This document shows, one piece after another, positions 37,768 to 59,928 of a DNA stretch of 64,000 nt. Within the stretch, counting starts at the first letter, position 1. Each line of letters starts with the position of its first letter. The position numbers and the translations under genes were made by a program. The notes beneath the pieces are model-generated. The model was not told the DNA's origin. It ran no database searches and was given only the letters and a program-made list of their open reading frames with translations. Source of the stretch: Thermoplasmatota archaeon (GTDB taxonomy: Archaea; Thermoplasmatota; E2; DHVEG-1); NCBI GenBank assembly GCA_016927555.1, contig JAFGML010000021.1, positions 9,508 through 73,507 on the forward strand, read 5' to 3'.

Positions 37768-37812
37768 CTGAAGCACCGAAGCTTCTGTATTATCCTACGA
37801 TTCATAAGTATT

Positions 37813-37859: not shown

Positions 37860-37861
37860 CT

Positions 37862-38932: not shown

Positions 38933-38942
38933 AATCTGGATT

Positions 38943-40841: not shown

Positions 40842-40844
40842 TCC

Positions 40845-41699: not shown

Positions 41700-41709
41700 G
41701 TGAGAAGCT

Positions 41710-42360
41710 ATGGTTGAGAAGTTTCATGTGGAGTTAGAAGACCTCAAGCAAGATGTCGCGAAAATGGCAGAACTTGCGATCTTTATGCTTTCGAACTCTG
41801 TAGACGCCTTCAAAAAACTTGATGTCGAGCAAGCAGATCTCGTCGACTCAAAAAAGAAGGAACTTGCTGAGATAAAAATCACCAATGAAGAGGAGGCATT
41901 GCAGTTAATCGCCTTATATCAGCCCATGGCTCGAGACATGCGGACGATTGCCAGCTGTTTGAAAATGATTACGGATCTCTATCGTATTGGGAGGTATGGA
42001 AAAGATATCGCGAAGGTTACTAGAGAGATTTACCCAGGACCCCATATTAAAAAAATCATTAGTCTGCCACATATGAACCAGCTCGTGTGTGGAATGATTA
42101 CTGATGCACTCACCGCGTTTCGCACAGGGAATCTCTCCCTGCTGAAAGATTTCACAGAACGAGATAATGATGTCGATGAGCTGCGCTATTCGATTTTCCG
42201 TGAGTGTATTTCCTACATGATGGAAGACCCAAAGAACATCACCATTTGTACTCATTACATCATGGTCGCCCGGTACTTGGAGCGTTGTGGTGACCATGCC
42301 TGCAACATGGCTGAAGAAGTGCATTACATCGTGACTGGAGAACGGATTGAGCTATCATGA
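41710..42360 (+). CDS. phoU: Phosphate signalling modulator PhoU
   Basis: 216 aa with two PhoU repeats (YRIGRYGKDIA and ERCGDHACNMAE). Sits directly after pstB. Confidence 0.85.
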   Translation: MVEKFHVELEDLKQDVAKMAELAIFMLSNSVDAFKKLDVEQADLVDSKKKELAEIKITNEEEALQLIALYQPMARDMRTIASCLKMITDLYRIGRYGKDIAKVTREIYPGPHIKKIISLPHMNQLVCGMITDALTAFRTGNLSLLKDFTERDNDVDELRYSIFRECISYMMEDPKNITICTHYIMVARYLERCGDHACNMAEEVHYIVTGERIELS

Positions 42361-42845
42361 AGCAGACCGTCTTGTTTATTTGCTACCATAATTCTGCTCG
42401 GTCTCAGATGGCAGAAGCATTCCTCAAGACATTGTATCAAAATCGATTTGAGGCAGCTAGTGCCGGAGTAGAACCGACGCAGGTAAATCCCTATGCTATC
42501 GATGTGATGAAAGAAGTTGGTATCGATCTTTCTTCGTATCGATCAAAGAGTATCGAGGAGTTCCGAGGACAGGTATTTGATTACGTGGTGACAGTGTGTG
42601 ACCAAGCTCAGGAGAAGTGTCCGTTTTTTCCTGGGAAAACAGTACTGCACCAAGGGTTCCGTGATCCTGCAGTTGTTCAGGGTCCTTTCGAAGAAACCAT
42701 GACAGTCTTTCAGCAGGTCCGCGATGAAATACAAACATGGATTACCAAGACATTTGGAGCTGATGATGTACACTCCCAAGTACAAGAATTTACTGTTGAA
42801 GTTTCAGCATGGAAAAAATCATCTGCTTTAGGTGAGAATCAGTGA
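42357..42845 (+). CDS. arsC: Arsenate reductase / low-molecular-weight phosphotyrosine phosphatase family (thioredoxin-coupled ArsC type)
   Basis: CX5R P-loop VLFICYHNSARSQMAE plus the downstream Cys pair VCDQAQEKCPFFPG. Its ATG overlaps the phoU stop (ATGA). Confidence 0.75.
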   Translation: MKQTVLFICYHNSARSQMAEAFLKTLYQNRFEAASAGVEPTQVNPYAIDVMKEVGIDLSSYRSKSIEEFRGQVFDYVVTVCDQAQEKCPFFPGKTVLHQGFRDPAVVQGPFEETMTVFQQVRDEIQTWITKTFGADDVHSQVQEFTVEVSAWKKSSALGENQ

Positions 42846-42903
42846 ATAGATCTAAGCATGAAAACTGGTGTTTTTTTCCGCTGATGAGCAGTAAGTATAT
42901 AGG

Positions 42904-42969
42904 TCTATATAGAAAATGGAGTTTATATTGATAATTTATTTATGTATAGAGAAAATAAAGATGTATAGA
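42904..42969. promoter_or_regulatory. TCTATATAGA palindrome plus two TATAGA half-sites upstream of AbrB-PhoU copy 2
   Basis: 10-bp perfect palindrome at 42904-42913. TATAGA at 42955-42960 and 42964-42969. Confidence 0.5.
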
Positions 42970-43096
42970 CGAACTAGTCCTAACTCAAGGAACTGGAGCG
43001 AGTACCTGTGGGGGACGTGGTCTCTCCAGCAAAAGACTTGACTGAGAGAAGCAGAGAATAGGCATGCGCAACTGCATGCGATTAGGGGAACTACAT

Positions 43097-44107
43097 ATGG
43101 AAACTCGTAAAGTGCAAATAACAGGCAAATCAACATATATTATTTCACTTCCTAAAACATGGGTCAACAAGGTAAAAATACGCAATGGTAACAGTGTTAT
43201 TTTGATACCACGCTCTGATGGAACATTACTGATTAATCCAAAACTCAATGAGACAAAAGAGGTATCCAGCAACGCTATCGCGGTAGACACCCTCGATATG
43301 GAAACCTTGTTTAGGAAGTTCATCGGGGCGTACCTCGCTGGCTTTGACGTCATTGAAATCAACAGCTCTGAGAAGATGTCCCCGGCGGTTCGTCAGCAGA
43401 TTCGTCGGATGACTCAAAGCGTCATTGGCCCTGAAATTATCGATGAAACCAGTACCTCAGTGAAGATACAAGATCTGCTGGATTCAAGCGACCTGTCCAT
43501 GATCCAGGGGCTGAAACGGATGTACGTGATCACCCGCGGGATGCATCGGGATGCAGTCATCGCTTTGGAGCAACGAGATACGGAGCTTGCGGAGGATGTT
43601 GAATCCAGGGACAATGAAGTCGACAAGTTTTACTGGATGATCGCCAAGCAGTATAATCTCGTCCTTAATGATATGTTTTATGCAGATAAAATGAATGTGA
43701 AACCTCAAGAGGTGCTAGGCTACCTGTTGGTTGCGCGTTCTATTGAGCGTATTGCAGATCATGCGAAACGACTCGCAAGCAACGTACAACTCTTGAAGGG
43801 GAAAATCGATATTCTGCCTAGGATATTAGAGGCGAGCGATGCGATTTTAAAGGAGTTTGACGAGGCGGTGAACGCGTTTCATCGAAATAAATTTGAGCAT
43901 GCCAACCAGGTCGTCATCAAGGCACGGTCTCTTGGAAAGCTCACCCAGCAGTTGACGCAGGAGATTTTAGGATTAAAACTAGATGCGGCGACAATAGTCT
44001 CCCTGGCGTATATCGTGGATAGTCTTGAGCGGACGCGGGCGTACGTGCTCGATATCGCGGAGACTGCGATTAACCATCAGTTTACGACAGCGATGGTAAC
44101 CACTTAA
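43097..44107 (+). CDS. AbrB/SpoVT-domain + tandem PhoU-domain regulator (copy 2)
   Basis: METRKVQITGKSTYIISLPKTWVNKV plus two PhoU repeats (ERIADHAKRLA, ERTRAYVLDIAE). ATG 43097 follows TAGGGGAA. Confidence 0.75.
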   Translation: METRKVQITGKSTYIISLPKTWVNKVKIRNGNSVILIPRSDGTLLINPKLNETKEVSSNAIAVDTLDMETLFRKFIGAYLAGFDVIEINSSEKMSPAVRQQIRRMTQSVIGPEIIDETSTSVKIQDLLDSSDLSMIQGLKRMYVITRGMHRDAVIALEQRDTELAEDVESRDNEVDKFYWMIAKQYNLVLNDMFYADKMNVKPQEVLGYLLVARSIERIADHAKRLASNVQLLKGKIDILPRILEASDAILKEFDEAVNAFHRNKFEHANQVVIKARSLGKLTQQLTQEILGLKLDAATIVSLAYIVDSLERTRAYVLDIAETAINHQFTTAMVTT

Positions 44108-46349: not shown

Positions 46350-49300
46350 TTAGTGTTTCATCATGCGGGAGGCACGATAGCTTACTAATCGCGCAATAGC
46401 ATTCAGAGCAAGTATCATGATAATTAGGATAAAAGCCACAGCATATATTTTTTCGTATAATGTAGGCCATTGAGCACTAACACTATAAAAAAGATAAATC
46501 ATGTTTGACATTGATGCTGTGGGCTGGAAAATCGATGTTGCGACATGTGCAGAATATCCTGCGGTGAACATGACTGCAGCTGTTTCCCCAATTGCTCGTC
46601 CCATCGAAATGATCGCACCACTTGTAATTCCTGGAGCCGCTGGAGGAAGAATAACTGTTCGAATCGTTTGCCATTTTGTTGCACCAAGAGCAAGTGCTCC
46701 TTCTTGAAATTCCCGAGGGATTGATTTAATTGATTCTATAGAACTTCGAAGCAGAAGAGGTATTACCATTATCCCAAGGGTGAGTCCTCCAGCAATCATT
46801 GATATCTTAAACTCAAGGAAAATCACAAAGAACATAAAACCAAATGCACCAAAGACAATGGATGGTGTACTTGCTAAAGTGTCTGAGGCAAAGAGAATGA
46901 TTTTCGTGATGATATTGTCTTTCTTGATATATTCTTGAATGTAAATCGCGGCACCAATGGACAGTGGAGCAGCAAATGCAAGGGCTATAGCAACAAGTTG
47001 GAGGGAACCTGTGATTGCATTAGCAAAACCTCCCCCTAAACCGCCCATTTCTTCTTTTTGAAAGAGATACTCGGGTTTTAATGCTAATCCACCCTTGACA
47101 ATAATATCCTGGATTATCGCAACAAGAAATAAAGTGACAGTTATTGCACAAAGAAAAAGAATGATTTTTATGATTTTTTCTGATTGAAGCGCTTTTTTTG
47201 TTGAAAATGTACGAATGAGATCTTTAAATTGACTTCTAGATGACTCATATGTAGCGTCTTCAGAGGTTTTTTTATGGGTAGAATCAATGATTACGAAATT
47301 TTTTGAAATTTTATCAGACACTATCTTAAATTTTTTTGCTGATGAAAGAGCTTGGATATTTTGTGTGTTTTTCATGAGTTTGTTTGATTTTTCTTTTTTT
47401 CGTTGCTTGAGTTTTTCTTTAAGGAATAAAAAAATACGATGACTATAGTTATGCTTGTTTTTTCTATGAATAGATAAGATGAGAACATTAAGTATGAAGA
47501 TAAGGAAAAAGAGGACAATTCCTATCGCAAAGAGAGCATGCCGTATTTGGTCGTATGAGTACCCCCAACCAAGTGTTGCCGCGATAACGGAAGTCATCGT
47601 GCCACCTGAATCAAATAGAGAACTTGGTATTTGATAAAAAGCACCCATAATCATGAGAACCGCCATGGTTTCTCCAATCGCTCTGCCAGTTGCAAGAATA
47701 ATCGACGTGATGATGCCGGATTTTGCCTCAGGTAATATGATATGTTTTACGGTCTGCCAGCGTGTCGTGCCTAAAGCAAGTGATCCTTCTTTGAGGTCTT
47801 TTCTGACAACATGAATAGCGTCTTCGGAGAGTGTAATAATAATCGGAAGTATCATGATACCAAGAACGATTGAGGCGGTTAGAACATCATTTCCTATGCG
47901 TGTTGTTGTTTTAAAAAACCAGATGTATTCACCTAGTGTGCTGGTTATGAGCGGATAAAGAGAGTGTGCAAGAAACGGTCCGAAGGTAAAAAAACCCCAA
48001 AGACCAAAAATAACTGAGGGGATTCCTGCAAGAAGCTCGTAGAGAGGCTTTAAAATCATTCTTATTTTTCTTGGGCAGAACTCAGATAGAAAGATAGCGC
48101 ATCCTAAGCCAAGAGGAGCAGCAATAAAGATTGCAATAGTTGTGGTAAGCAATGTTCCTACGATGAATGGTAATATTCCAAATGTTGGTTGTGTTTTTTC
48201 AAGTTCGATGAGTAACTCGGTTTCAAGTGTCTCATCTTGAGTTGATTCTGGGGATTCGACGATAAACGTGAGGTGTAGGGTATCGGTTGATTGATTACCA
48301 ATGTTTATTGTTCCATCACCGATTAGTAACATTGTTCCGTTTTGAAGAAGAGTTGTTTTCCAGGTATCTCTACTGCTGGTTACGGTGAATGTCGCAAATC
48401 GTTGCACCTCATTGAGCGTTATTGTGTAGTTAACTGATGAACCAGCGATGATGTTTAATCTGTCCGTATCTACTTTGATTAAATTTTGGTTTTTGAAATG
48501 AAATAGTATGTGTGATGTGTCTGTTACTTGAGGATGGTTTGTCGAATTTATCGTTACTAGTATGTCATAGACTCCATCTTGAAAACTGACGAGTCGCGGG
48601 TTGACTGTCAGATTGAGTGATGCACCTGCTTCAAGAGTAATTTGTGCTGATGATGAGTTGTAATTCCAGTTCTCAGTGAGTTCTGCTATAGATGGACGGA
48701 AATAGTCCGGAGCATGAAGGGTGATGGTGTAGGTGTCTGAATACTCTCCAGTATTTTTCAGCTGCAGGAATGCTAGTTGAAATCCTAGTTCGTCTCCTGT
48801 GGCGACGAGGCTGATTTGACTTGGAGAGAGATCAACTCGATACTCAGAGGCGGTGATTTGTAACGGGATAATTTTATTATAAGATGAGGATTGTGAGGTT
48901 ACTGTTATTGATCCTTGATAAATATTCTCACCAGCGGGTATGAAGACACTAAGGTTCATTACCACGGTGTCATTGGGTATAAGAGCAATTGGTGAGTGCG
49001 GCGCAAGAGAATAGCTTAGGTTTTGTTCAAATTGTATATCTATGGCTATGTCATCAGTGGTTCCTCCTCGATTACTGATTGTAAATGGGATGGTCACCCA
49101 AGCATCAGGGGCAGCGAAAAGGGAGGTATCCTCTAGGTGTATGTGAAGGTCGTAGGCAACAATATGGGTGATCAGTGTTGTTGATTCTGTTTTTCCTAGG
49201 CTATATGATGGTTGCCATTGTGTCCCGGTGATAAATTCAGCGGGCCCGGTTGTATCGTAGAAAGCAGGCATGCCTTCGCGTACAATAAAAAGAACGATTA

Positions 49301-49718
49301 AAAAAACTGCTAAGGTTGTTGAAAGTGAAAGCAGGAAAAGTAATTTTTTTATGATGCGTTCTTGAAAGATCAGATAGCAAAGGATGAGCGCCTCGATGCT
49401 GATGAAAGTAACAATCAACGTGCCTAAAGCTATTGGAGAGGGGGTATAGCCTTGGAATAGGTTTTGTGGATGAAAAAGTATTTGTTCAAGAACGAAAAGA
49501 AAAATTTGGAATTGGAAAAGCAAAAAGAATAGCTTTATTTTTTTTTTGTAAAAAAACATGATAATTAATCCGATTTCTGTGAGCATGATAAGTAGGATGA
49601 ACATGGGATTCATGACAAATATGTTTGGCAAAAATATTATTATTAAAAAAAGAATATTTATGATAAACAGTATCCATTTTGATTGTAGTATCTCTGTAAA
49701 ACCCATTGCATCTGTCAA
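46350..49718 (-). CDS. Giant fused PstC-PstA phosphate permease (set 2) with an extra N-terminal TM bundle and a ~340-aa insertion in the first extracytoplasmic loop
   Basis: 1122 aa. The PstC landmark FITGTQWQP is separated from QPTFGILPFIVGTLL by residues ~171-509 (nt 48192-49208), versus only a few residues in set 1. EAA loops KEGSLALGTTRWQT and QEGALALGATKWQT. A Lys-rich linker joins the halves. Confidence 0.8.
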   Translation of the reverse strand: MTDAMGFTEILQSKWILFIINILFLIIIFLPNIFVMNPMFILLIMLTEIGLIIMFFYKKKIKLFFLLFQFQIFLFVLEQILFHPQNLFQGYTPSPIALGTLIVTFISIEALILCYLIFQERIIKKLLFLLSLSTTLAVFLIVLFIVREGMPAFYDTTGPAEFITGTQWQPSYSLGKTESTTLITHIVAYDLHIHLEDTSLFAAPDAWVTIPFTISNRGGTTDDIAIDIQFEQNLSYSLAPHSPIALIPNDTVVMNLSVFIPAGENIYQGSITVTSQSSSYNKIIPLQITASEYRVDLSPSQISLVATGDELGFQLAFLQLKNTGEYSDTYTITLHAPDYFRPSIAELTENWNYNSSSAQITLEAGASLNLTVNPRLVSFQDGVYDILVTINSTNHPQVTDTSHILFHFKNQNLIKVDTDRLNIIAGSSVNYTITLNEVQRFATFTVTSSRDTWKTTLLQNGTMLLIGDGTINIGNQSTDTLHLTFIVESPESTQDETLETELLIELEKTQPTFGILPFIVGTLLTTTIAIFIAAPLGLGCAIFLSEFCPRKIRMILKPLYELLAGIPSVIFGLWGFFTFGPFLAHSLYPLITSTLGEYIWFFKTTTRIGNDVLTASIVLGIMILPIIITLSEDAIHVVRKDLKEGSLALGTTRWQTVKHIILPEAKSGIITSIILATGRAIGETMAVLMIMGAFYQIPSSLFDSGGTMTSVIAATLGWGYSYDQIRHALFAIGIVLFFLIFILNVLILSIHRKNKHNYSHRIFLFLKEKLKQRKKEKSNKLMKNTQNIQALSSAKKFKIVSDKISKNFVIIDSTHKKTSEDATYESSRSQFKDLIRTFSTKKALQSEKIIKIILFLCAITVTLFLVAIIQDIIVKGGLALKPEYLFQKEEMGGLGGGFANAITGSLQLVAIALAFAAPLSIGAAIYIQEYIKKDNIITKIILFASDTLASTPSIVFGAFGFMFFVIFLEFKISMIAGGLTLGIMVIPLLLRSSIESIKSIPREFQEGALALGATKWQTIRTVILPPAAPGITSGAIISMGRAIGETAAVMFTAGYSAHVATSIFQPTASMSNMIYLFYSVSAQWPTLYEKIYAVAFILIIMILALNAIARLVSYRASRMMKH

Positions 49719-49896: not shown

Positions 49897-51039
49897 TTAG
49901 TAGAGGCTAATGTATCCGCTTTGTTCGCAGATTTTTTTGTTCATCTCTGGGCCAAGGACAAAGTCGATGTAGACTTTTGCGTCGCCTTTTGGTTTTCCAA
50001 CGGTGACATACAAGAGTTCTCGGGCACCATCATAGAAGGTTGTTACACCAGAGCGAATGTTTTTTGCAAAATTAGTGTCGTTTGGGTCTATTAGGGTTTT
50101 AACTGTTCGTCCAGCATAGGGTATCATCGTCACAAGGCCAGTTGAGGTGGCAACAGCACCATACGAGATGAAACCAAGAGCATCTGCATCCTTTGATATC
50201 GCCTGTATAAGCTCAGCGTTACCAGTTGCATGGATGGCAGCGATGCCTCGTGATTCAAGATCGACTTTTCCTTCGTTGATCATAGAACAGAAGGTTTCCT
50301 CTGTACCTGAGACTTCAGATCGGTCATAAATCTTTACTTCTTCACTACCTGTGCAGTTATCAAACATATCGGTACGTATATTTTTTGTTGGAACTTCATC
50401 CCATGAAATATACCCATTTGCGTCGCGATCTCTAACACCATCGGTCTGATTACTCTTCCAATTTGTTGATAATTGGTCCCATGTTGCAGTTCCTTCTCTC
50501 CCGTTATATGCATAGACATCTCGAACAGTCATAGCATGGATGCTTGTTAACCCGTGAGTATTTGCATATGGGACAGCAATAACTACTGCATCATATGCAA
50601 TCAGTGTGGTAAAAAGATCGATACCAATATCTTTCTTGCCATCGCGATTCAAATCAGGTAACGAAGTCATTTTTGCTTCTACATCTGACCTGGATGATGC
50701 ACTACCAATATCAATGGTTCCATATCCAACTGCAGTGACTCCTGCACCGGTTCCACCCTGTTGGAAAGAAATCTTATAGTTTGGGTTCTGTGCTTCGAAA
50801 AACTGTGCAGCAACAGCTGTGAACGGATATACAGTTGTACTTCCACCAATAGTCATTGCTGCTTGTAACTCACCAGCACCACCGGTTTTTGTTTGAACGT
50901 CACTCTGCCAGCCGCTCTGCCAGACATAGAACGCCCCAGCTGATCCAACAGCAACGAGGACCAACATAAGGGTGGCTATGATTGGTGAGACCGCCTGGGC
51001 GTTCTTCACTAGCCTTTTTCCTATTGTTTTTGTGTTCAT
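49897..51039 (-). CDS. pstS: PstS-family phosphate-binding protein (set 2) with a class III (type IV pilin-like) signal peptide
   Basis: ATG 51039 lies 6 nt after TGGAGGCA. N-terminus MNTKTIGKRLVKNAQAVSPIIATLMLVLVAVGSAGAF. PstS blocks GGSTTVYPF and GGTGAGV...TIDIGSASS. EF-hand-like loops DLNRDGKKD and DRDANGYISWDE. Confidence 0.8.
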   Translation of the reverse strand: MNTKTIGKRLVKNAQAVSPIIATLMLVLVAVGSAGAFYVWQSGWQSDVQTKTGGAGELQAAMTIGGSTTVYPFTAVAAQFFEAQNPNYKISFQQGGTGAGVTAVGYGTIDIGSASSRSDVEAKMTSLPDLNRDGKKDIGIDLFTTLIAYDAVVIAVPYANTHGLTSIHAMTVRDVYAYNGREGTATWDQLSTNWKSNQTDGVRDRDANGYISWDEVPTKNIRTDMFDNCTGSEEVKIYDRSEVSGTEETFCSMINEGKVDLESRGIAAIHATGNAELIQAISKDADALGFISYGAVATSTGLVTMIPYAGRTVKTLIDPNDTNFAKNIRSGVTTFYDGARELLYVTVGKPKGDAKVYIDFVLGPEMNKKICEQSGYISLY

Positions 51040-51294
51040 TTTTTTTGCCTCCAAATATTTTTCTACTTTGGATTGCATCCCCCAACACCGTCAGGTTCAC
51101 GAAATCCAAACCACATGCAGTATTTTTCTGCACTTACTTTGCGCCAACGAACCGGTTTTTTAATAAGCTTATTCAAATAAAAAAAATAGAATGAGTAGAT
51201 GACACGACTACCACTCACGGCTACATACAAAAACTGGAACTATATAGGGTATAGTGTCTCTATACAACATCTTTTTAACACACAGTTTTCATAG

Positions 51295-53091
51295 ATGGTT
51301 CCAGAGCAACAAAAGGAGGCATTCTGTATTCCACGCTTTGAACATCTCAGCAATCTCTTCAAGAAAAAAGACGACTCTGAGCAACAAATCACCCGACTGC
51401 TTGATACCAAATACCGAGATCTTCTGAAAAAGAAAGCTGAGTCACTCGAACAACACTTCCTCCCAAAAGAAGAAATCTCAGAAAAAATCATTCAACAAGA
51501 AGAAATCAGCTTCATGAGAAGAGAATTCGAACGAAACAAAAGCACCGTCAACATCACGTATCCTGTCAACCCACCCTTCGCTTTTGTGAACATCCTCTTC
51601 AACGAACAAGCTGGGGAATTCCACTACCTGCTCAAAGAACCAAAACTCAAAGAAGCTGAGGTACACCACCTTGACCTCATCAAACAAAAAATAGAGGCAA
51701 CCATGGATGAAGAAGACCTTCCCATCGACGAGGAAGGAACCTTCACTGTCTCAAAGGAACTCAAAGCATACCTACAGAAACGATTCCTCGATGTCATCGA
51801 CTTGTACGACATTGCTGTTGATGAGAAACGACGACCCATTCTCTTGTATTACCTACAGAAAGACCTCCTTGGACTTGGTAGAAGCGACGCAGTCATCAAA
51901 GACCTGTTCGTCGAAGACATCGGCTGCAATGGGCCAAAAACACCCCTCTACCTGTACCATCGTGTGTTTGGCTCCATGAAGACCAACATCACCTACCCTA
52001 GTGAACTTGAACTGAACAAGTTCATCCTGAAGCTGGCGCAAACCTCTGGCAAACACATCAGCGTCTATCAACCAATCCTAGATGCAGTCCTTGCTGACGG
52101 CAGTAGAATCAACCTCACCTTAGGTTCTGAGGTCACAAGGAAAGGCTCGACGTTCACGATACGGAAATTCAGCTATGACCCGATCTCACCGATTGACTTG
52201 CTCAGGTTCGGCTCAATCTCCACCCTGCAGCTGGCGTACTTCTGGCAGCTCATCGAACATAAGAAATCCATTCTGATGAGTGGGGGAACCGCTTCAGGGA
52301 AAACCACGCTGCTCAACGCCCTGTGCATGTTCATCAGACCAGAGGATAAAATCGTCTCCATAGAAGACACCCCAGAGATCCACATCGACCATCAGAACTG
52401 GATCCAATCAGTGGCACGAAAAGGATATGGGAAAATGATGGGGGTGTCTGGCATCTCAGGGATATCAGGAATCTCAGGAATCTCCTCCTCAAGCGGCGGG
52501 CCTGGGTCTATTGATATGTTTGATTTACTTGTCGCTGCCCTGCGTCAACGACCAGAGTACATCATCGTTGGGGAAATACGAGGCAGAGAAGCCTTCACCC
52601 TCTTCCAAGCCATCGCCGTTGGCCACTCCTCAATGAGCACGGTGCATGCTGGGTCTATCGAAGAACTCCTCCACCGGGTGGAAAACGAACCGATGAACAT
52701 CCCCCGTGTTTTGTTCCAAAGCATTGACGCGGTCGCCTTCCAAGGACAAGTCATCGCCAACGGCAAACGCGTCAGACGAGTCAAAAACATAGTGGAAGTC
52801 CTTGAAATCGACCCTGATACCAACAACCTGCTCACGAACACCGCGTTCCACTGGAACCCCAAGGGTGACTTCTTCCACTACAACGGCAGAAGCTTCATTG
52901 TGGAAAAAATCGCTCGAGACACAGGGAAAGACTCCGATAAAATCATGGAGGAGCTCACCAGAAAAGAACACTACCTGCAACTCATGAACAAGAAAAACCT
53001 GACGTACTACAAAGACGTCAGCAAAGCCATCAACATGTACTATGTCGACCCACTGAAAGCAACCATGGACCTTGAAGCAACCCTGAGGTAA
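51295..53091 (+). CDS. FlaI/ArlI-PilB-type secretion ATPase (type IV filament assembly)
   Basis: Walker A SGGTASGKTTLLNAL, Asp box IVSIEDTPEI, Walker B/His box RQRPEYIIVGEIRGREA...GHSSMSTVHA. Unusual GVS(GIS)4SSSGGPGS insert. Confidence 0.85.
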   Translation: MVPEQQKEAFCIPRFEHLSNLFKKKDDSEQQITRLLDTKYRDLLKKKAESLEQHFLPKEEISEKIIQQEEISFMRREFERNKSTVNITYPVNPPFAFVNILFNEQAGEFHYLLKEPKLKEAEVHHLDLIKQKIEATMDEEDLPIDEEGTFTVSKELKAYLQKRFLDVIDLYDIAVDEKRRPILLYYLQKDLLGLGRSDAVIKDLFVEDIGCNGPKTPLYLYHRVFGSMKTNITYPSELELNKFILKLAQTSGKHISVYQPILDAVLADGSRINLTLGSEVTRKGSTFTIRKFSYDPISPIDLLRFGSISTLQLAYFWQLIEHKKSILMSGGTASGKTTLLNALCMFIRPEDKIVSIEDTPEIHIDHQNWIQSVARKGYGKMMGVSGISGISGISGISSSSGGPGSIDMFDLLVAALRQRPEYIIVGEIRGREAFTLFQAIAVGHSSMSTVHAGSIEELLHRVENEPMNIPRVLFQSIDAVAFQGQVIANGKRVRRVKNIVEVLEIDPDTNNLLTNTAFHWNPKGDFFHYNGRSFIVEKIARDTGKDSDKIMEELTRKEHYLQLMNKKNLTYYKDVSKAINMYYVDPLKATMDLEATLR

Positions 53092-53097: not shown

Positions 53098-54027
53098 ATG
53101 AAACAACGCCGTACGAAGAAAGAGCCTTCTTTGAAAAAACCAGTCAGTGCACTCCTCGTGGAACGCTACAAAGCGTTCAGCTACCGTCTCTTCGGCAAAC
53201 ACGTGTTCACTACAGAGAAGACTGGGGCATTGTCTGAAAAACTCAAAATGGCAAACATGCGTTACACACCATCGGTATTCTACTCAACACTGCTGACCAC
53301 AGGCATACTCATCACAGTTCTTTCACTCATCGTCTTCAGCTTCCTGTTTCATTTTCTCCTAACGATAGACATGTGGCTTTTGTACTCCCTTGCGCTAACC
53401 GCGGTGACTACGACAGTAACCCTTGGGATGTTCTTCTTCGTCATGAACTCGAAAATCTCCTCACGGAAATCGCAAATCGACCACGAACTGCCCTTCGTCC
53501 TCAGCGAGCTGTCCATTCTCGCAAGCACGGGGCTGACCCCCATTAAAATCATGCGGCACATGGCACAGCGTCACGGTAACCCAGCGATGACCTCAGAATT
53601 CAGAAAAATCATATCAAAAATCGACGTGGAAGGAAAAGACATCATCACCGCGATGAGTGAAACCGCAAAGGAAACACCCTCGCCACTGTTCCGGGAGACA
53701 CTCTGGGACCTCTGCAACATGATTCACCAGGGAGGAGACCTGGATGCATACCTACGTTCAAAGGCAGACATCACCCTGCAGCTGAAGCGAGATATCCAAA
53801 AAGAATTCATAGAGAAACTGGCGACCTACTCCGAGATGTACTCAAGCTTGGTCCTCATCGGCGTACTGTTTCTTGGGATTGCAGCATTCTTGCTTGATGC
53901 GATGCAATCCACAATAGGACCACTCACCGCTGACTCCTTACTGCTCATGCTCTCATACTTAATCATACCTGCGGTCATCATTGGTGTGAATGCTATCGTC
54001 TCTCTGGCGTATGCGAAGAGCGGGTGA
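53098..54027 (+). CDS. Type IV filament platform protein, half-size (single T2SSF domain; FlaJ/TadB-like)
   Basis: One T2SSF-type cytoplasmic domain (ELPFVLSELSILASTGLTPIKIM...GGDLDAYL) flanked by TM segments. Confidence 0.7.
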   Translation: MKQRRTKKEPSLKKPVSALLVERYKAFSYRLFGKHVFTTEKTGALSEKLKMANMRYTPSVFYSTLLTTGILITVLSLIVFSFLFHFLLTIDMWLLYSLALTAVTTTVTLGMFFFVMNSKISSRKSQIDHELPFVLSELSILASTGLTPIKIMRHMAQRHGNPAMTSEFRKIISKIDVEGKDIITAMSETAKETPSPLFRETLWDLCNMIHQGGDLDAYLRSKADITLQLKRDIQKEFIEKLATYSEMYSSLVLIGVLFLGIAAFLLDAMQSTIGPLTADSLLLMLSYLIIPAVIIGVNAIVSLAYAKSG

Positions 54028-54034: not shown

Positions 54035-55432
54035 TTGCGCTTTCACACCATCTCCTTGAGTGTAGCATTCTTCCTTCTCCTCTGTCTTCCCTCCAGCATC
54101 ACCGCACAAGAAGATACCACTCCACCAGTGATTATTAGTGTTTCCCCTGCCGAGGCCACAACCATAGGTAACCAAACACCACAAATCATGGTTCAGTACG
54201 CAGATGAATCAGACATCGACCTGAGCACTGTTAGAATCATCGTCGATCAAATAGATGTCACAGAGTGGGAGGAAACCTCGATAACAGACACCTCTGTTTT
54301 GTATAAGGTTCCGCAGATCCTCAGACTCCAAGACGGTAATCATTCCGTGTTTATTGAGGTGGCAGATACACAAGGGAACCGTGCGACAAAAACCTGGGTG
54401 TTTCTCGTTGACACAACACAACCAACACTCCAAGGAGAAAGCCTGGACCTCTTCACCATCGTCACCTTTTTCATCTACGGAGCACTCATCAGCGCAGTCC
54501 TCTTCATTTTTTATATTTTATACCTGAGGAAAACACGGAGGTTCACGTTCAGAAAGTTCTTTGCACAACATCCCATACAAAAAGAAATCATCACCCTCTA
54601 CATTCCCCTCATCCTTGGTTTTTTTATCATCCTCTTTGGTCTTGCTTGGACCTCAAGAAACCTGCCTGACATCCCGTTTTCCCCGGAGTACGTCTTTTCT
54701 GCCGGAGTGCTCATTGCCCTTGGACCATTCACACTATCATCGATAGCTGAAAAACGCACTATCAATCGGTACGAGCAAGCGTTCGCACAGTTTCTCTTTG
54801 AAATGGCAGATGCTATGCGCGGGGGTCTTGACCCCACCAAAGCACTCATTGAGCTTGCAAAGGGAAATCAAGGAATCCTCAGAGACCATCTGAAGAAAGC
54901 AGCGGAGAACATCAAACTCGGTCGACCCTTTGATGAGGTGATGCAAGCCATGGTCCGTCCTATTAAAAGTGATTTGGTGAAACGGTATGCGACTTTGATT
55001 GGTGACACCTCAAAAATCGGTGGGGAAACCTCACTGGTCATTTACAGAACCGCAAAGGATATGGATGACTTTATCAAAATCAACCAGGAGCGCAGACGGC
55101 AGCTCACCGCTCAGGTCACCACGATTTACATCGCCTTTGCCGTCTTACTTGTCATCCTGTATCAGTTGATCACGATGTTTCCTTCAATGGGGTCATTGAA
55201 CCTCTCTTTGCTTGGTGCCACTGATTTGGATTCCACAGAGACAAGCTCATCGATCATCCGCATGAGTAGTGAAACCATGAAACGCAGGTTCCTTCATCTC
55301 ATGATGATTAACTCCCTGGGCACAGGGACGCTCATGGGGATGCTTGTTGATGGAAAAATCAAATACGGGCTTATTCATTCACTCGTCCTGATTAGTATAT
55401 CAGTGGTGTTCTTCGCACTTCTCATCCTTTAA
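54035..55432 (+). CDS. Type IV filament platform protein, half-size (T2SSF domain) with a Sec-type signal and an N-terminal Ig-like ectodomain
   Basis: TTG start 7 nt after GGGTGA. Signal LSVAFFLLLCLPSSITAQ. A ~110-aa beta-rich domain (PPVIISVSP...TWVFLVDTTQPT), TM segments, then a T2SSF block (FEMADAMRGGLDPTKALIELA...GRPFDEVM). Confidence 0.7.
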   Translation: MRFHTISLSVAFFLLLCLPSSITAQEDTTPPVIISVSPAEATTIGNQTPQIMVQYADESDIDLSTVRIIVDQIDVTEWEETSITDTSVLYKVPQILRLQDGNHSVFIEVADTQGNRATKTWVFLVDTTQPTLQGESLDLFTIVTFFIYGALISAVLFIFYILYLRKTRRFTFRKFFAQHPIQKEIITLYIPLILGFFIILFGLAWTSRNLPDIPFSPEYVFSAGVLIALGPFTLSSIAEKRTINRYEQAFAQFLFEMADAMRGGLDPTKALIELAKGNQGILRDHLKKAAENIKLGRPFDEVMQAMVRPIKSDLVKRYATLIGDTSKIGGETSLVIYRTAKDMDDFIKINQERRRQLTAQVTTIYIAFAVLLVILYQLITMFPSMGSLNLSLLGATDLDSTETSSSIIRMSSETMKRRFLHLMMINSLGTGTLMGMLVDGKIKYGLIHSLVLISISVVFFALLIL

Positions 55433-55476: not shown

Positions 55477-56736
55477 TTACTCAGTGATTGCTCCTAGGAA
55501 ATCACAATAGGGGCAGCGAAGTATTCCCTCTGTATCATTGAGTGTTGTGGTAAAAGTCTTCTGACACATAGGGCAGGAGACTTCAACAGCAGGAGAGGGT
55601 AGCCGAATAGAGGTTACCTGTGCGTCCTTTGTATTTCTCACAGCTGAGGATTTTCTTGGTGAGGCCCGAGGTGCCTTGGTCTTTTGTGATGAAGTTTTTT
55701 TATGAGACATAGTAGTTTTTTGTGTATTTGAGGATGGTTCAGACGATGCTGTTGTCGTTATTTTCTGTATGGGTACACACACCAACTCAGGAGCCACAGC
55801 ATCCTCCGGAATAGTGATTTTCTGTTCTTTTACCATGGAGAGGACTTCACCAACGACGACTTCATCAATCATGATGGAACGCTTCTTTGCAGCGTAATCA
55901 ATGACAACATCAGCAAGCTTGAGGAGATGACGAGGGTTGCCAGCCACATCTAAATTGAGAAAAGCGACGCCCTCGGGGGTGAACGGGTACAAAGGGTCCA
56001 CATCATCAACGAGTCGTTTCTCTAAGAGTCTTTTGGCAATCATCAACTGTGCTTCTTCATCGCTGAGCGGTGGGATTTGGATTTTTCGGTTTATCCGTTC
56101 ATGCAGGGATTTGTGCTGCTCCATGAGTGATTCGAAATACTGCTGATCACTGCTGATCATAATCATCACGCCTTGGTCAATGTGGTCAATCATGACGTGC
56201 AGTGTGTGTAAGAACCGCTCAGCATCCTCCACCCGTGCAAGGTGATGAAAATCATTTATTAACAGAAACGAAGGGGCATTATTGTTTAAAGCATCAGCGA
56301 TGATTCTACCGGCTTTATCAGGATCGTACTGCTTCTCTGCTTTCTTAAGTTTCTTTTTAACCGACTTGTACCACTTCGGAGCAGAGAACAGACGAGTGAA
56401 GAAACCAAGGTGGCTTTGAAGAAGGAGTAGATGCAGGATGCCTTCGACGACCCAGCGGGTCTCAAAAGTCATGTTCTGAAACACATAGAACGCGTTGTTG
56501 CGTTTTGCTTCATTTGCCACCAGCAGCAGTCGCTCGGTTTTCCCAGCACCAAGCCCACCAAGCACTGCAACAACCGCTTTGTTTTCCTTGTAGAATACTT
56601 CCTCGCGCATTCGAGCTAAATCTTCATCAACCCGCTGAACGACATGGAAGATGTCAACGTTCTCCAAACTCTCACTGGAGAGATCTCGGAACGGATTGCT
56701 ACTTAACCCATAGCGTTCATATCCTGTTTTCTGCAT
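55477..56736 (-). CDS. ExeA/AAA_22-like P-loop ATPase with a disordered Ser/Thr/Lys-rich linker and a C-terminal zinc ribbon
   Basis: YGLSSNPF N-terminus, Walker A GGLGAGKTERL, Walker B-like LLINDFHH, C-terminal CPMCQ...CPYCD. Confidence 0.6.
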   Translation of the reverse strand: MQKTGYERYGLSSNPFRDLSSESLENVDIFHVVQRVDEDLARMREEVFYKENKAVVAVLGGLGAGKTERLLLVANEAKRNNAFYVFQNMTFETRWVVEGILHLLLLQSHLGFFTRLFSAPKWYKSVKKKLKKAEKQYDPDKAGRIIADALNNNAPSFLLINDFHHLARVEDAERFLHTLHVMIDHIDQGVMIMISSDQQYFESLMEQHKSLHERINRKIQIPPLSDEEAQLMIAKRLLEKRLVDDVDPLYPFTPEGVAFLNLDVAGNPRHLLKLADVVIDYAAKKRSIMIDEVVVGEVLSMVKEQKITIPEDAVAPELVCVPIQKITTTASSEPSSNTQKTTMSHKKTSSQKTKAPRASPRKSSAVRNTKDAQVTSIRLPSPAVEVSCPMCQKTFTTTLNDTEGILRCPYCDFLGAITE

Positions 56737-56752: not shown

Positions 56753-57367
56753 CTACGTGACCCGTGCGCGAAGATCGATGCTGATCTTTTTGCCATCAAA
56801 GGTGTAGTAAATATTATCATTGAAGGAATCACGGTTCATCCATTTGGAAATCCGAATATACCGTGCGATTCCCTTTGTCGTCTCTTTGGATAAAAAATGA
56901 ATAATACCATCAGCAAGGTGACCTATGGTGATCTGGACTTTCTCATCAAGCATCCCGTACTCCAGTGAGAGCAGGAGAATGGTGTTGTGTTGTTTGCACA
57001 GACTATCCAGCTCCTCAACAATGGTTCGGACTTCTGATAAGGTCTTGTCAAGAACCAAATAGGAAAACGAGTCGATGATAAGCACCGCATCTCTCCTGAT
57101 GAAATCCTTCCAGTGGCGATGGGAACGCTCTTCAACAATTTGACACTTGGTTGAATCGGTGTACTGCGACAGTTCAGCGACAACCTCTTCTTTTGCCCGC
57201 GAGGCGATGTACACAACCTCTTTTTTGTGTTTCACGGCAAGCCCTGCTACAGTTTGAATAAAGATCGTCTTAATGGGGTCAATCGTGCCTTGGACGACAA
57301 CAATGTTCCCATTTGGGATTTCTTGTATGAATTCGTTTAATCCAGCTATGTGAATAGGAATCCCCAT
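56753..57367 (-). CDS. KaiC/RecA-superfamily FlaH(ArlH)-like protein with a degenerate Walker A
   Basis: GLNEFIQEIPNGNIVVVQGTIDPIKTIF (GxxGxGKT degraded to GTIDPIKT) and a VLIIDSFS Walker B-like strand. ATG 57367 preferred over the longer track ORF. Confidence 0.55.
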   Translation of the reverse strand: MGIPIHIAGLNEFIQEIPNGNIVVVQGTIDPIKTIFIQTVAGLAVKHKKEVVYIASRAKEEVVAELSQYTDSTKCQIVEERSHRHWKDFIRRDAVLIIDSFSYLVLDKTLSEVRTIVEELDSLCKQHNTILLLSLEYGMLDEKVQITIGHLADGIIHFLSKETTKGIARYIRISKWMNRDSFNDNIYYTFDGKKISIDLRARVT

Positions 57368-57452
57368 AGGAGCCAATATCCTCTTTTTTATTATCGCTAA
57401 GAATACTATATTTCTTAAAGATATTGAACATAATCTATGGACCGCCTTAGTT

Positions 57453-57462
57453 TCTATATAGA
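57453..57462. promoter_or_regulatory. TCTATATAGA palindrome in the divergent flaH-like / pilin-like intergenic region
   Basis: The same perfect 10-bp palindrome as at 42904. A further TATAGA at 57483-57488. Confidence 0.5.
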
Positions 57463-57529
57463 CATACATACCATGCATACATTATAGACATCATTTTTAA
57501 GATACGGAAAAAAGTACGTAAATCTACCT

Positions 57530-58423
57530 ATGAGAAAGTGTACTTACGAGGAGCAAGCAGTCTCTATTATCATTGGAGCGTTAATGCTTACCGTCATTGT
57601 CGTGTCAGCAGCAACAGCGTTTGCAGTGTTCACCAGTCAAAAACAAAAGGAGCTGCAGGAAGCACAGTACGCCTCCTTACAACGAGATCTCGAACAGCTA
57701 GCCATTACAAGGATCTCCACCATCCACTACAACAGCTCAAATCATTTAGAAAACATTAGTTGTAGCATCGTCAGTCTCCACGCAGATGACTCACGCATTA
57801 TTTCAATGAGTCTGAACGGCAATTACCTCAGGTATTTTCACCTCACCAGGCAAGACTACACACTAGAAGAGTGGAAAATCAATTCAACAACAGGTGAATA
57901 TGTCTTACAGAGTGTAACAGACAGTCAGGGTGCCGTGATCTATAATGGAAGCACAAGTTTTAACACATCGAATGAAAAATATTCATACTACCCCTTGACA
58001 GTGTTATCTCGAGAACGAGTGCTTCTTACTATAGACAATGCATCGAGCACAAGTGTATTCCTTATTCGGCATATTCTTAGCAATGATGCAATTACTTTGT
58101 CGGTGTACACAAGTTTAACCAATGAGTTTTCAAAGACGTTCTATCCACCGACAGCAATCATCCGTCTCATTACTGAGTCACAGTGGAATAGCACAAGTAA
58201 TGACTATGAATCAGTCATCATCTTGGATGGCTCCCTCTCAGATCATCCTTCACTAGATGCCTACATTGTATCATGGATATGGACAGTCGATGGAAATCCA
58301 CTGAGCACATCGGGAAGAAAAATCCGTGCACCAGATAGCCTTCTCATAGGGAACCATAACATCACCTTGAGTGTCACTGATAATTTTGGCATGAACAGCA
58401 CCAGCACAATCACATACCCCTAG
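57530..58423 (+). CDS. Type IV pilin-like protein (class III signal peptide) with a C-terminal PKD-like domain
   Basis: N-terminus [34 protein letters not shown] (archaeal pilin N-domain type). Many N-x-S/T sequons. C-terminus [10 protein letters not shown]...[12 protein letters not shown] (PKD-like). Confidence 0.7.
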
Positions 58424-58439: not shown

Positions 58440-59207
58440 ATGGCACTGAAGAAAAAACCTAAAATCACCATCAACAATCTGAATCTGTGGTATGGCGACA
58501 AACAAGCACTCATCAATGTTTCGATACAGATACCGGAACATAAAATAACCGCACTCATCGGCCCCTCCGGATGCGGAAAATCCACACTCATCCGCTGCTT
58601 AAACCGTATGAATGACACCATCGATACCTGTAAGACAAGAGGTGAAGTACATCTTGATGGACACAATATCTACGCTGATGATGCAAACGTCGTGGCAATA
58701 CGTAGAAAAATCGGCATGGTGTTCCAGAAACCAAACCCCTTCCCAAAAAGTGTGTACGACAACATCGCATATGGACCGAAAATGCAAGGAATTAAAGACA
58801 AAAAAATTCTTGACCCGCTGGTCGAACAAACCCTGAGGAAAGCAGCGCTTTGGCAGGAAGTTGTTGATCGATTACATGAATCAGCTATGGGATTGTCGGG
58901 AGGTCAACAGCAGCGACTCTGCATCGCACGTGCCTTAGCTATTGAACCGGAGGTCATCCTCATGGATGAGCCCTGCTCCGCCCTTGACCCCATAGCGACT
59001 GCAAAAATAGAGGACCTCATGGTAGAGCTAAAAAAAGATTACACGGTCGTCATCGTCACTCATAACATGCAGCAGGCAGCACGCATTAGCGATTACGCTG
59101 CGTACATGTACCTCGGCAAGATGATCGAATTTTCATCAACAAAACAACTCTTTGAAAACCCTAAAGAAGAACTCACCCAGAACTATATCACCGGGAGATT
59201 TGGATAA
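58440..59207 (+). CDS. pstB: Phosphate ABC transporter ATP-binding protein PstB (set 2)
   Basis: Walker [10 protein letters not shown], signature [15 protein letters not shown]-terminus YITGRFG. Very similar at protein level to PstB at 40845, but with many synonymous differences. Confidence 0.9.
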
Positions 59208-59211
59208 CACG

Positions 59212-59928
59212 ATGCAGAATTCTGCTTCTCCCCAGTACTTCACTCTCTCTGAGAAAGGGACAAAACGTTCGAGGAATGAGGATTGCTTTCTTGTGGAAAC
59301 CCACCAAAATCACTACTTGTGTGCAGTCGCTGACGGCGTTGGTGGTCTGCAGAATGGTCATGTTGCAAGCAGTCATGCAATCTCAGAACTACGACAATTG
59401 TTTAGAGGACGACAGATGGGTCTGAAGGACTGTTTTCACCTCATCAACACATCGTTAGTACGAGAGAACCAGAAGCATTCACAGACCAGCGCAACCACAC
59501 TAACCTCGGTACTCATCAACGTAGAAACCATGGAAGCAATGATAGCCCACGTCGGAGATAGCAGAGCGTACGTCATCACTGAAACACTATGGAGAACACA
59601 CGACCATAGCTTGGTTGAGCAGCTCGTTGATCTCGGTGTGATTACTGAGGAGGCAGCATTTACTCATCCCGAAAAGCATAGGATTACACAAGCACTAGGA
59701 ATCAATACAAGTATTGGTGTTGAGGTGAATTACCAAGGACTCAAGAACGCGATCTTGTTACTCTGTTCAGATGGGCTACATAATTTTGTTCGTGACAGAG
59801 ACATTGCTACCATCGCTCGAGAGCATGACCCACAAACAGCCTGTATACGATTAATGGAAATTGCGCGAACACAGGGGAGTAATGATGACATCACAATCAT
59901 ATTTTTCAAGATAGGAGATGAAAGGTAA
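59212..59928 (+). CDS. PP2C-family Ser/Thr protein phosphatase
   Basis: RSRNEDCF, AVADGVGG, LLLCSDGL and GSNDDITII motifs. ATG 59212 lies 5 nt after the pstB2 stop. Confidence 0.8.
   Translation: MQNSASPQYFTLSEKGTKRSRNEDCFLVETHQNHYLCAVADGVGGLQNGHVASSHAISELRQLFRGRQMGLKDCFHLINTSLVRENQKHSQTSATTLTSVLINVETMEAMIAHVGDSRAYVITETLWRTHDHSLVEQLVDLGVITEEAAFTHPEKHRITQALGINTSIGVEVNYQGLKNAILLLCSDGLHNFVRDRDIATIAREHDPQTACIRLMEIARTQGSNDDITIIFFKIGDER

Follow-up and report, generated by a model that had tools for sequence, protein, structure and literature searches.

A PstS-family phosphate-binding protein with a pilin-like N-terminus, encoded in a conserved cluster of phosphate-transporter and type IV filament genes in archaea

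We analysed a stretch of DNA of 64,000 nucleotides (nt) from a Thermoplasmatota archaeon (GTDB lineage Archaea; Thermoplasmatota; E2; DHVEG-1), taken from contig JAFGML010000021.1 of assembly GCA_016927555.1 (positions 9,508 to 73,507 of the forward strand). We refer to this whole stretch as the window and give coordinates as positions within it. One of its genes, pstS2, encodes a PstS-fold phosphate-binding protein that keeps the ligand positions of the family and carries an N-terminus homologous to that of an archaeal filament subunit. The gene lies inside a conserved cluster of phosphate-transporter (pst) and type IV filament genes (Table 1), a context that an earlier note on this DNA had missed. 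We consider it rather probable that PstS2 is a high-affinity phosphate binder which is matured like a type IV pilin and works in a bindosome-like filament system dedicated to phosphate. The embedding of the PstS2 family in such a module appears to be a variant of the bindosome idea that is new to the literature: a literature search of incomplete coverage returned no description of a pst and type IV filament module or of a Ca2+-binding PstS.

The mechanical open reading frame (ORF) of pstS2 runs longer than the gene, starting at 51078. The ATG at 51037-51039, which the earlier note had chosen for its Shine-Dalgarno sequence, is also the start in PstS2 homologues and in an identical NCBI protein (P0001) from a Candidatus Thermoplasmatota metagenome-assembled genome (MAG), and we retain it. 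The proposal that the gene encodes a PstS paralog is borne out as well. The protein contains the PstS core motifs GGSTTV (residues 65-70), QQGGTGAG (93-100) and DIGSAS (110-115), and it matches the Pfam family PBP_like_2 (PF12849) with 64.4 bits against a cutoff of 27 (E 1.8e-17), as do 90 of 91 PstS2 relatives. Since it falls below the NCBIfam cutoffs for PstS (107 bits against 206.6 for TIGR02136; 21.7 against 205 for TIGR00975), PstS2 belongs to a divergent PstS subfamily. An AlphaFold2 model built on the alignment of the 91 relatives reaches a mean predicted local distance difference test score (pLDDT) of 87 and a predicted template modelling score of 0.78. When this model was compared with the PDB by Foldseek, the best 41 matches were all phosphate-binding proteins (top E 1.6e-17).

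A profile alignment of PstS2 with Escherichia coli PstS by hhalign (probability 97.8%), in which the motif numbering of the E. coli sequence agreed with the published one, allows the phosphate site to be compared residue by residue. T68/T69 of PstS2 correspond to T10/F11, T97 to S38, D110 to D51, R240 to R135, E242 to D137 and S244-G245-T246 to S139-G140-T141. Seven of the eight phosphate-ligand positions of E. coli PstS are kept (T68, T69, T97, R240, S244, G245 and T246), and the eighth, Asp56, is replaced by Ser115, which is invariant across the PstS2 family. Canonical PstS (E. coli; 4JWO, 4GD5, 1TWY) thus shares with PstS2 the two-lobe fold, the ligand positions and the PstC/PstA/PstB partners, whereas it carries a Sec or lipoprotein signal, Asp56 and no acidic inserts where PstS2 has a pilin-like N-terminus, Ser115 and two inserts. 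Identity to PstS1, the lipoprotein-type protein encoded in the same window (37862-38932; lipobox LLAGC), is only 25%. PstS2 itself has no lipobox, as had been claimed, because no Cys precedes residue 229. Annotation pipelines name proteins of this family only "substrate-binding domain-containing protein", or even "flagellin-like protein".

The N-terminal sequence of PstS2 is MNTKTIGKRLVKNAQAVSPIIATLMLVLVAVGSAGAFYVW. Its n-region (residues 1-13) contains four Lys or Arg residues, the hydrophobic stretch covers residues 16-40, and the AlphaFold model has a single continuous helix from residue 19 to 52, followed by a low-confidence linker before the PstS head. In a sequence search of the PDB, residues 17-49 align to residues 1-33 of the mature chain of Iho670 (5kyh, E 2.7e-4) and residues 17-42 to residues 1-26 of a second Iho670 structure (3j1r, E 7.7e-4); between residues 17 and 45, 16 of 29 positions are identical to the mature Iho670 N-terminus (VSPVIATLLLILIAVAAAVLLYTWVSGLS). 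Because the alignment begins at residue 1 of the mature chain, cleavage of PstS2 would be expected between A16 and V17. Iho670 builds the adhesion filament of Ignicoccus hospitalis, for which cryo-EM structures exist (5KYH, 3J1R), and resembles PstS2 in being a large subunit (303 residues) with a similar helix that forms a filament. It differs in its head domain, which is unrelated and has no binding-protein fold, and in the absence of a transporter context. The top PDB matches of the N-terminal 59-mer, designed "Pizza" beta-propellers, were rejected as sums of sub-threshold repeats (each domain at E > 300), and matches to dPPR10 were rejected for the same reason.

Conservation in the family is concentrated in this segment. 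Mean pairwise identity among the 91 relatives is 0.71 over residues 17-35 and 0.36 over the PstS domain, S18, P19 and A22 are invariant, and position -1 of the predicted site (residue 16) is A or G in 91 of 91. Residues 17-35 form the best-conserved part of the protein, the reverse of what a discarded signal peptide would lead one to expect. Since the relatives had been retrieved partly via N-terminal words, the PstS domain by itself (residues 60-380, no word index) was used as the query against 1.84 billion cluster representatives, which gave 181 clusters at E<=1e-10. The motif [AGS][VIL][STA]P[IVL][IVL][AGS] is present in 111 of the best 150 of these 181 clusters and in 44 of the 46 top-ranked ones, the two exceptions being one truncated sequence and one GVDPVIATL variant; a lipobox-type protein is first seen at rank 47. 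The N-terminus of PstS2, for which the earlier note had suggested a database search, is thus shared by nearly all close PstS relatives. As judged from these sequences, PstS2 is no singular oddity; it is a member of a large PstS subfamily, nearly all of which has a pilin-like N-terminus.

The same gene set surrounds homologues in a second Thermoplasmatota MAG (L001, 50% identity), in an "uncultured Thermoplasmatales" MAG (L002, 41%), in Methanomassiliicoccus luminyensis (L004, 33%) and in Methanolobus tindarius (L006, 28%). In M. tindarius the genes follow the order pstS-pstC-pstA-ATPase-platform-platform within one operon, and a class III-type PKD protein comes after the KaiC-like gene. When one genome per GTDB species was scanned, 80 loci were obtained, distributed over Thermoplasmatota, Methanomassiliicoccales, Methanocellales, Methanosarcinales (including the anaerobic methanotrophic group ANME-2), ANME-1, Methanomicrobiales and two Nitrososphaerales MAGs. 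In the 35 species loci that have 9 kb or more of sequence to either side, pstC/A is found in all 35, a filament ATPase and/or platform gene (T2SSE/T2SSF) within 10 kb in 32, a KaiC-like gene in 24 and pstB in 11. In Methanosarcinales and Methanomicrobiales (L006 10001-17382, L025, L028, L032, L034, L036-L039, L052, L054 and others) the genes follow this pstS-pstC-pstA-ATPase-platform-platform order, and the pstA and ATPase ORFs overlap. A reverse search from the filament ATPase alone yielded 80 metagenomic loci (57-78% identity), and a PstS2-like gene lies divergently upstream of the ATPase gene in 52 of the 52 loci with at least 1.6 kb of upstream sequence; in the loci found this way the other pst genes are often located beyond the filament genes. 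The linkage between PstS2 and the filament genes is therefore reciprocal and survives rearrangement of gene order, which argues for a functional unit.

The two Nitrososphaerales MAG contigs (L042 and L062) encode the same N-terminus beside a T2SSE ATPase, which extends the pattern outside Euryarchaeota-type lineages. One further contig binned as "Deltaproteobacteria bacterium" (L082) carries an archaeal-type locus and is probably mis-binned. In M. luminyensis B10 a T2SSE ATPase and two T2SSF proteins adjoin pstS (L004 5679-9759). Among the archaea without secretion ATPases, Makarova et al. 2016 listed three "Thermoplasmatales" species, which they treated alongside Methanomassiliicoccus, and the mismatch with M. 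luminyensis probably reflects a different genome set.

The PstS fold with its ligand positions, the N-terminal homology to a filament subunit, the gene linkage and the conservation of motifs are observed, and the course of cleavage, assembly and phosphate delivery that we propose for PstS2 is inferred. A prepilin (class III) peptidase would remove residues 1-16, leaving V17-S-P-I-I-A-T-L at the head of a long hydrophobic helix. The FlaI-like ATPase, the two-piece FlaJ/TadC platform and the KaiC/ArlH-like ATPase, together with the P-loop accessory ATPase, would then extract this helix from the membrane and pack it into a filament or short stalk, probably along with the pilin-PKD protein. A flexible linker (residues 47-59) would present the PstS heads at a distance from the membrane, and captured phosphate would be handed to the PstCA2-PstB2 ATP-binding cassette (ABC) importer of the same cluster. 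A bolder version of this scheme is conceivable, to which we give only tentative credence. It would make PstS a repeating or regularly spaced subunit of a dedicated phosphate-scavenging filament whose FlaI/FlaJ/FlaH-like motor co-evolved with pst. Extension and retraction of the filament, in place of simple diffusion, would deliver loaded PstS to PstCA where pstB is absent and pstA overlaps the ATPase gene, and Ca2+ loops would lock the heads or gate assembly.

Several observations weigh against the proposed bindosome-like role. The first concerns transport: most Methanosarcinales and Methanomicrobiales loci have no pstB in the cluster (24 of the 35 well-flanked loci lack it within 10 kb), so that a transport role is less secure there. 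This is the main reason to consider that the cluster instead builds a phosphate-regulated pilus of pilin-PKD subunits, for example for adhesion to phosphate minerals or cells, with PstS2/PstCA2 serving mainly as sensor input in the way that PstSCAB does for the bacterial Pho regulon, and with PstS2 merely anchored in the membrane. The conserved pilin-like protein with its adhesin-type PKD domain would fit such a pilus, as would the frequent neighbourhood of PhoU and MazE-PhoU regulators and the presence of KaiC-like and P-loop regulators and a PP2C phosphatase. For uptake, moreover, the window already has a PiT transporter and a complete pstS1CAB-phoU operon of the conventional kind. Nevertheless, PstS2 keeps its phosphate-binding positions, and the clusters of Thermoplasmatota and Methanomassiliicoccales have a full permease and their own pstB. 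The Iho670-like helix sits on PstS itself and is more strongly constrained there than the PKD protein's helix is, and the literature offers a precedent in binding proteins with class III signals that need the Bas machinery for uptake. We therefore regard a sensor-coupled adhesion pilus as unlikely.

The remaining objections concern the N-terminus and its processing. The FlaFind rule, which reportedly goes back to Szabo and colleagues in 2007, is said to define class III sites by Gly or Ala at -1 and a charged residue at -2. Position -2 is Gln in PstS2 and varies in the family (K 19, Q 14, A 12, Y 10, among others). PstS2 also stays short of the cutoffs for both N-terminal pilin profiles: with TIGR02537 it scores 16.3 bits where 20 are required (E 0.005), and Pilin_N (PF07790), which at E<=0.05 matches 15 of the 91 relatives, gives no match to PstS2 itself; the UpsA model reaches E 0.002. 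In the AlphaFold model the helix is detached from the PstS head (pLDDT 63-67 at residues 41-60), an arrangement that a simple tether would fit as well. A crude motif scan of all ORFs of the window, which is a weak test, found no prepilin peptidase gene. Finally, N-terminal words supplied part of the seed for both the family alignment and the GTDB scan, a bias that the N-terminus-independent searches (with the PstS domain and with the ATPase) correct only partly.

It had also been claimed that PstS2 has no AxA site. This does not hold, as A34-G35-A36 closes the hydrophobic stretch and is conserved in the family (A34 in 81 of 91 relatives, A36 in 76), creating a possible signal peptidase I (SPase I) site before F37. 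Motif grounds alone are thus insufficient to dismiss Sec/SPase I cleavage. With its basic n-region, hydrophobic stretch and AGA-F junction the N-terminus has a Sec-like layout, and the sub-threshold pilin matches, the uncharged -2 residue and the unpacked helix would all suit an ordinary Sec signal cut after A36, or an uncleaved anchor, on which the neighbouring filament genes do not act and which would leave PstS2 a conventional tethered or secreted binding protein. Against this, discarded signals are not normally the most conserved part of a protein, and residues 17-35 of PstS2 hold three invariant residues. The segment is retained in mature Iho670, where a small-residue patch AAA at the site equivalent to the AGA of PstS2 persists in the filament subunit. 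The hydrophobic stretch, at about 24 residues, has transmembrane length, the linkage to filament genes is near-universal and reciprocal, and M. tindarius has an operon in which pstA and the ATPase gene overlap. We consider an ordinary Sec signal or anchor quite improbable. For the archaeal prepilin pattern proposed in the earlier note, Iho670 homology, the weak matches to archaeal pilin profiles, the conservation of residues 17-35 and the adjoining filament genes speak in favour, while the missed profile cutoffs, the Gln at -2 and the AxA site do not. Overall, a pilin-type class III N-terminus on PstS2 is well supported, if indirectly.

The second feature that sets PstS2 apart from other PstS proteins is a pair of acidic loops, which had been described as two canonical Ca2+-binding loops without counterparts at the equivalent positions of PstS1. 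The profile alignment with E. coli PstS shows both to be insertions relative to that protein, and PstS1 lacks both motifs at the aligned positions. The word canonical holds only in part. Loop 2, whose 12-residue core DRDANGYISWDE occupies residues 204-215 (nt 50395-50430, exactly as first reported), fits the PROSITE pattern PS00018 in full. Loop 1 fails it, with K at position 8 and I at position 12, and Pfam EF-hand families match neither PstS2 nor any of the 91 relatives. The core of Loop 1, DLNRDGKKD, comprises residues 129-137 (nt 50629-50655); the range first given for it, about 50617-50655, began correctly at 50655 and ran on to D141, past the end of the core at 50629.

Loop 1 is the better conserved and the better ordered of the two, and is best named a DxDxDG-type loop. 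Of 120 relatives, 60 have it, every one being of the Thermoplasmatota type, with the consensus Y/L-P-D-L-N-x-D-G-x-K-D-x-G. Among these 60 the ligand positions are kept in 55 (D129), 55 (N/D131), 57 (D/N133), 52 (G134) and 57 (D137), so that positions 1, 3, 5, 6 and 9 are conserved at 87-95% among relatives of about 40% identity. Of the non-ligand positions, 4 and 7 vary freely, 2 stays hydrophobic and 8 is mostly Lys. A DxDxDG motif (D-x-[DN]-x-[DN]-G, acidic at position 9) is found at this site in about 47 of the 120 relatives. In the AlphaFold model the loop is ordered (pLDDT about 96) and has no regular secondary structure. A PDB search with a 29-mer around it gave no match even at E<=10.

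Loop 2 is best described as an EF-hand-loop look-alike that is kept in a minority of relatives. Its PDB matches are calmodulin Ca2+ loops only (for example VFDRDGDGYISADEL against VRDRDANGYISWDEV, 11 of 15 identical), and the full PS00018 pattern occurs at this site in 8-9 of 120 relatives with differing non-ligand residues; counterparts include DFDGDGTIQWDEV, DTDTSGSVEWDEL, DDDNDDSVSWDEL and DANTDDLVQWDEL. Relatives with Loop 2 keep D1, D/N3, D/N/S5, a hydrophobic residue at 8 and E12, and the rest varies. In composition-preserving shuffles of PstS2, 0.15% give a PS00018 match and 0.29% a DxDxDGxxD-like match. The W-D-E-V end of Loop 2 is an ordinary PstS motif, shared with PstS1 and E. coli PstS, so that the shuffle figure understates how readily PS00018 can be matched. 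The loop also lies in the least conserved and least confident region of the model (21% mean pairwise identity, pLDDT 53-65), which weakens the case for a Ca2+ site. A helix (residues 188-197) ends six residues before it and a three-residue turn follows, with no helix-loop-helix. In four relatives (P0006, P0015, P0035 and P0038) inserts of 60-150 residues occupy the Loop 2 site, which marks it as an insertion hotspot.

Ca2+-binding loops outside EF-hand domains offer a comparison, being single loops of 9-12 residues rich in Asp, Asn and Gly in non-EF-hand folds. Vyas and colleagues reportedly described such a Ca2+ site in the E. coli galactose/glucose-binding protein in 1987, and the DxDxDG motif is said to have been treated by Rigden and Galperin in 2004. 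Ca2+ sites are also known in type II secretion pseudopilins and in PilY1. The PstS2 loops differ from EF-hands in having no helix-loop-helix pair and, for Loop 1, no Glu at position 12. Judging from motif and conservation, Loop 1 likely binds Ca2+. Binding by Loop 2 is possible, and would probably be confined to a sub-clade. The acidic inserts would most likely be structural Ca2+ sites that stiffen an exposed extracellular domain, Loop 1 more so than Loop 2.

It is possible, if somewhat doubtful, that both loops merely resemble Ca2+ motifs and are Asp/Asn/Gly-rich surface loops that have no metal function or bind another partner, such as the PstC insert or the cell envelope. The variability of the Loop 2 region, the small number of relatives with its full pattern, the shared W-D-E-V, the absence of EF-hand flanking helices or Pfam matches for either loop and the absence of a PDB sequence match for Loop 1 would all agree with this. 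Set against it are the pattern of constraint in Loop 1, where ligand positions are retained while positions 4 and 7 drift, the same distinction in the relatives that bear Loop 2, and the likeness of Loop 2 to a calmodulin loop. In addition, some relatives (P0047, P0054, P0068 and P0074) have a third DxNxDGxxD-type loop elsewhere, near the C-terminus.

The closest known parallel to the arrangement around pstS2 is the bindosome of the Sulfolobales, in which class III signals are established for sugar-binding proteins together with the Bas system (reviews), and in which a filament ATPase and a platform protein are required for functional surface localisation of the binding proteins. Like PstS2, the binding proteins GlcS, AraS and TreS of Saccharolobus/Sulfolobus solfataricus (with BasEF/BasABC) belong to ABC importers and have pilin-type N-termini, and the ATPase and platform proteins of the window match the BasE and BasF models, if weakly. 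The differences are considerable. The substrate is phosphate here and sugar there, the binding protein is of the PBP_like_2 family, and the hosts are Thermoplasmatota and Halobacteriota instead of Sulfolobales. Whereas the Sulfolobales genes for binding proteins lie with ABC transporters and away from bas, the machinery here is inside the transporter locus, its platform is split in two, and the set includes a KaiC/ArlH-like ATPase and a pilin-PKD protein. The window proteins fall well outside the Bas families (BasE 184 bits against a cutoff of 1000; BasF 34.7 against 1300), and the ATPase is nearer to FlaI (399 bits, cutoff 550) than to BasE. An archaellum was rejected, since the FlaI score is under the cutoff, archaellins are absent and pst genes accompany the gene set in every case. 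By this comparison the pst-filament system is best regarded as a functional analogue of the bindosome that is a member of neither the Bas family nor the archaella.

A recent preprint (bioRxiv 10.64898/2026.04.22.720090, April 2026) reported 4364 candidate binding proteins with class III signals across Archaea, including Euryarchaeota, and proposed that type IV filament machineries display such proteins in widespread bindosomes. The genes were usually beside ABC transporters and not filament clusters, and the main text nowhere mentions phosphate or PstS. PstS2 fits the category of that study and differs in that transporter and dedicated filament genes form one conserved module. Makarova et al. 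2016 noted KaiC-family ATPases co-transcribed with VirB11/TadC operons in Methanomicrobia, with transporters and phosphate unmentioned, and a split platform has recently been described for a Thermoplasmatales pilus. Multidrug-resistant Pseudomonas aeruginosa shows PstS-rich extracellular appendages (PMC2242829), on which PstS is displayed instead of being free in the periplasm; these are bacterial, the abstract of that report mentions no pilin-type N-terminus or dedicated filament machinery, and they are probably not homologous to the pst-filament system.

Outside the sugar bindosome of the Sulfolobales, hardly any binding protein with a pilin-type signal is known from experiment. The architecture and mechanism of the bindosome have been hard to resolve, partly because its machinery and its cargo have separate loci and one machinery handles many cargos. 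Around pstS2, one cargo (PstS), one transporter and one filament machinery constitute a single module that is present in at least four archaeal orders. The module occurs in cultured M. luminyensis, Methanolobus, Methanoculleus and Methanosarcina, with genetic tools for the Methanosarcina group only. It should make a clean test case for how a type IV filament machine can serve nutrient uptake. The module further suggests that methanogens, ANME archaea and Thermoplasmatota of sediment and peat, all of relevance to methane cycling, have an unrecognised strategy for acquiring phosphate, and it supplies a PstS scaffold whose putative Ca2+-binding inserts are open to testing.

Within the window, the fused permease PstCA2 is much longer than the other fused PstCA (38943-40841, 632 residues only), and its 350-residue insert has no Pfam match. 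Fusions of 1071-1094 residues are conserved downstream of pstS2 in the two other Thermoplasmatota loci and in M. luminyensis (L001, L002 and L004). The insert appears to sit in the first external loop of the PstC half, a placement that we infer. In E. coli the first external PstC loop contacts the C-lobe of PstS, as a K167-D63 crosslink indicates (PMC12976172). The AVS[PI]II N-terminus occurs in the window only in PstS2 and in the 297-residue pilin-PKD protein, which bracket the filament machinery and are the only pilin-like genes of the cluster; the M. tindarius equivalent of the latter is at L006 18215-19354. The 419-residue P-loop protein is conserved in the loci of Thermoplasmatota and Methanomassiliicoccales. 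In the second platform protein (54035-55432) a signal-peptide-like segment and an Ig-like domain (TIG E 7e-3) precede the T2SSF domain, and in M. tindarius the Ig-like part is seemingly C-terminal instead. An ORF for a PP2C Ser/Thr phosphatase (59152-59928, + strand) overlaps the 3' end of pstB2 and is also present in L001, L010 and L012; a calcineurin-like metallophosphoesterase (60131-60904, - strand) comes after it. The presence of a PP2C phosphatase with a KaiC-like ATPase hints at phospho-regulation of the filament machinery.

Table 1. Features of pstS2 and its gene cluster in the window.
Feature	Position	Strand	Description	Basis
pstS2	49897-51039	-	380-residue PstS-family phosphate-binding protein with pilin-like N-terminus	ORF, Pfam, AlphaFold, Foldseek
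Shine-Dalgarno GGAGG of pstS2	51048-51052	-	8 nt 5' of the ATG	Direct reading
Putative class III signal peptide, residues 1-16	50992-51039	-	Short basic n-region ending in A16; predicted cleavage between A16 and V17	
Pilin-like hydrophobic alpha-1 helix, residues 17-52 (VSPIIATLMLVLVAVGSAGAFYVWQSGWQ...)	50884-50991	-		AlphaFold, conservation, Iho670 likeness
Loop 1 insert, residues 127-141 (LPDLNRDGKKDIGID)	50617-50661	-	DxDxDG-type putative Ca2+ loop	
Loop 2, residues 204-216 (DRDANGYISWDEV)	50392-50430	-	EF-hand-like 12-residue loop plus one hydrophobic residue	
pstCA2	46350-49718	-	Fused PstC-PstA permease, 1122 residues; directly downstream of pstS2	Two BPD_transp_1 domains
PstCA2 hydrophilic insert, residues 165-514	48177-49226	-	350 residues; extra N-terminal hydrophobic segments also in PstCA2	
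Type IV filament assembly ATPase (FlaI/PilB-like)	51295-53091	+	Divergent from pstS2	T2SSE E 8.5e-33
Platform protein, N-terminal half (FlaJ/TadC-like)	53098-54027	+	ArlJ/UpsF/BasF-like	T2SSF E 1.6e-13
Platform protein, C-terminal half	54035-55432	+	N-terminal Ig-like domain	T2SSF E 3.3e-12, Big_13 E 5.7e-4
P-loop (AAA_22/STAND-like) protein	55477-56736	-	419 residues, C-terminal CxxC...CxxC	Weak Pfam matches
KaiC/ArlH(FlaH)-like ATPase	56753-57478	-		PF06745 37.7 bits; ArlH model E 8e-8
Second pilin-like protein	57530-58423	+	297 residues, PKD-like C-terminal part	Pilin_N 22.7 bits, E 1.9e-4
pstB2	58440-59207	+	Phosphate ABC transporter ATPase	TIGR00972 415 bits, cutoff 343

A phosphate island occupies 34807-44107 of the window. 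It comprises a PiT/PHO4 transporter (34807-36042), a PhoU_div protein (36065-36763), a complete lipoprotein-type pstS1-pstCA-pstB-phoU operon (37862-42360) and two MazE(AbrB)-PhoU fusion proteins (36772-37776 on the - strand, and 43064-44107); in M. luminyensis and M. tindarius, too, the cluster is flanked by MazE-PhoU fusions. A repeat search for operators in intergenic regions gave weak inverted repeats only. The heptamer CTCTATA is found 11 times in the window against 4.25 expected, a number that none of 100 shuffles reached, with eight copies in intergenic DNA of the phosphate island; recorded positions are 37822, 37851, 42945, 45427, 49762/49765, 51258 and 59983. The sites include the pstS1 promoter, the spacer between pstS2 and pstCA2 and the region upstream of the filament ATPase gene. 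CTCTATA is a candidate Pho-type operator or promoter element and hints at co-regulation of pst and filament genes. It recurs at homologous intergenic sites in the second Thermoplasmatota MAG (L001, 9822 and 11224) and in M. luminyensis (L004, 9801).

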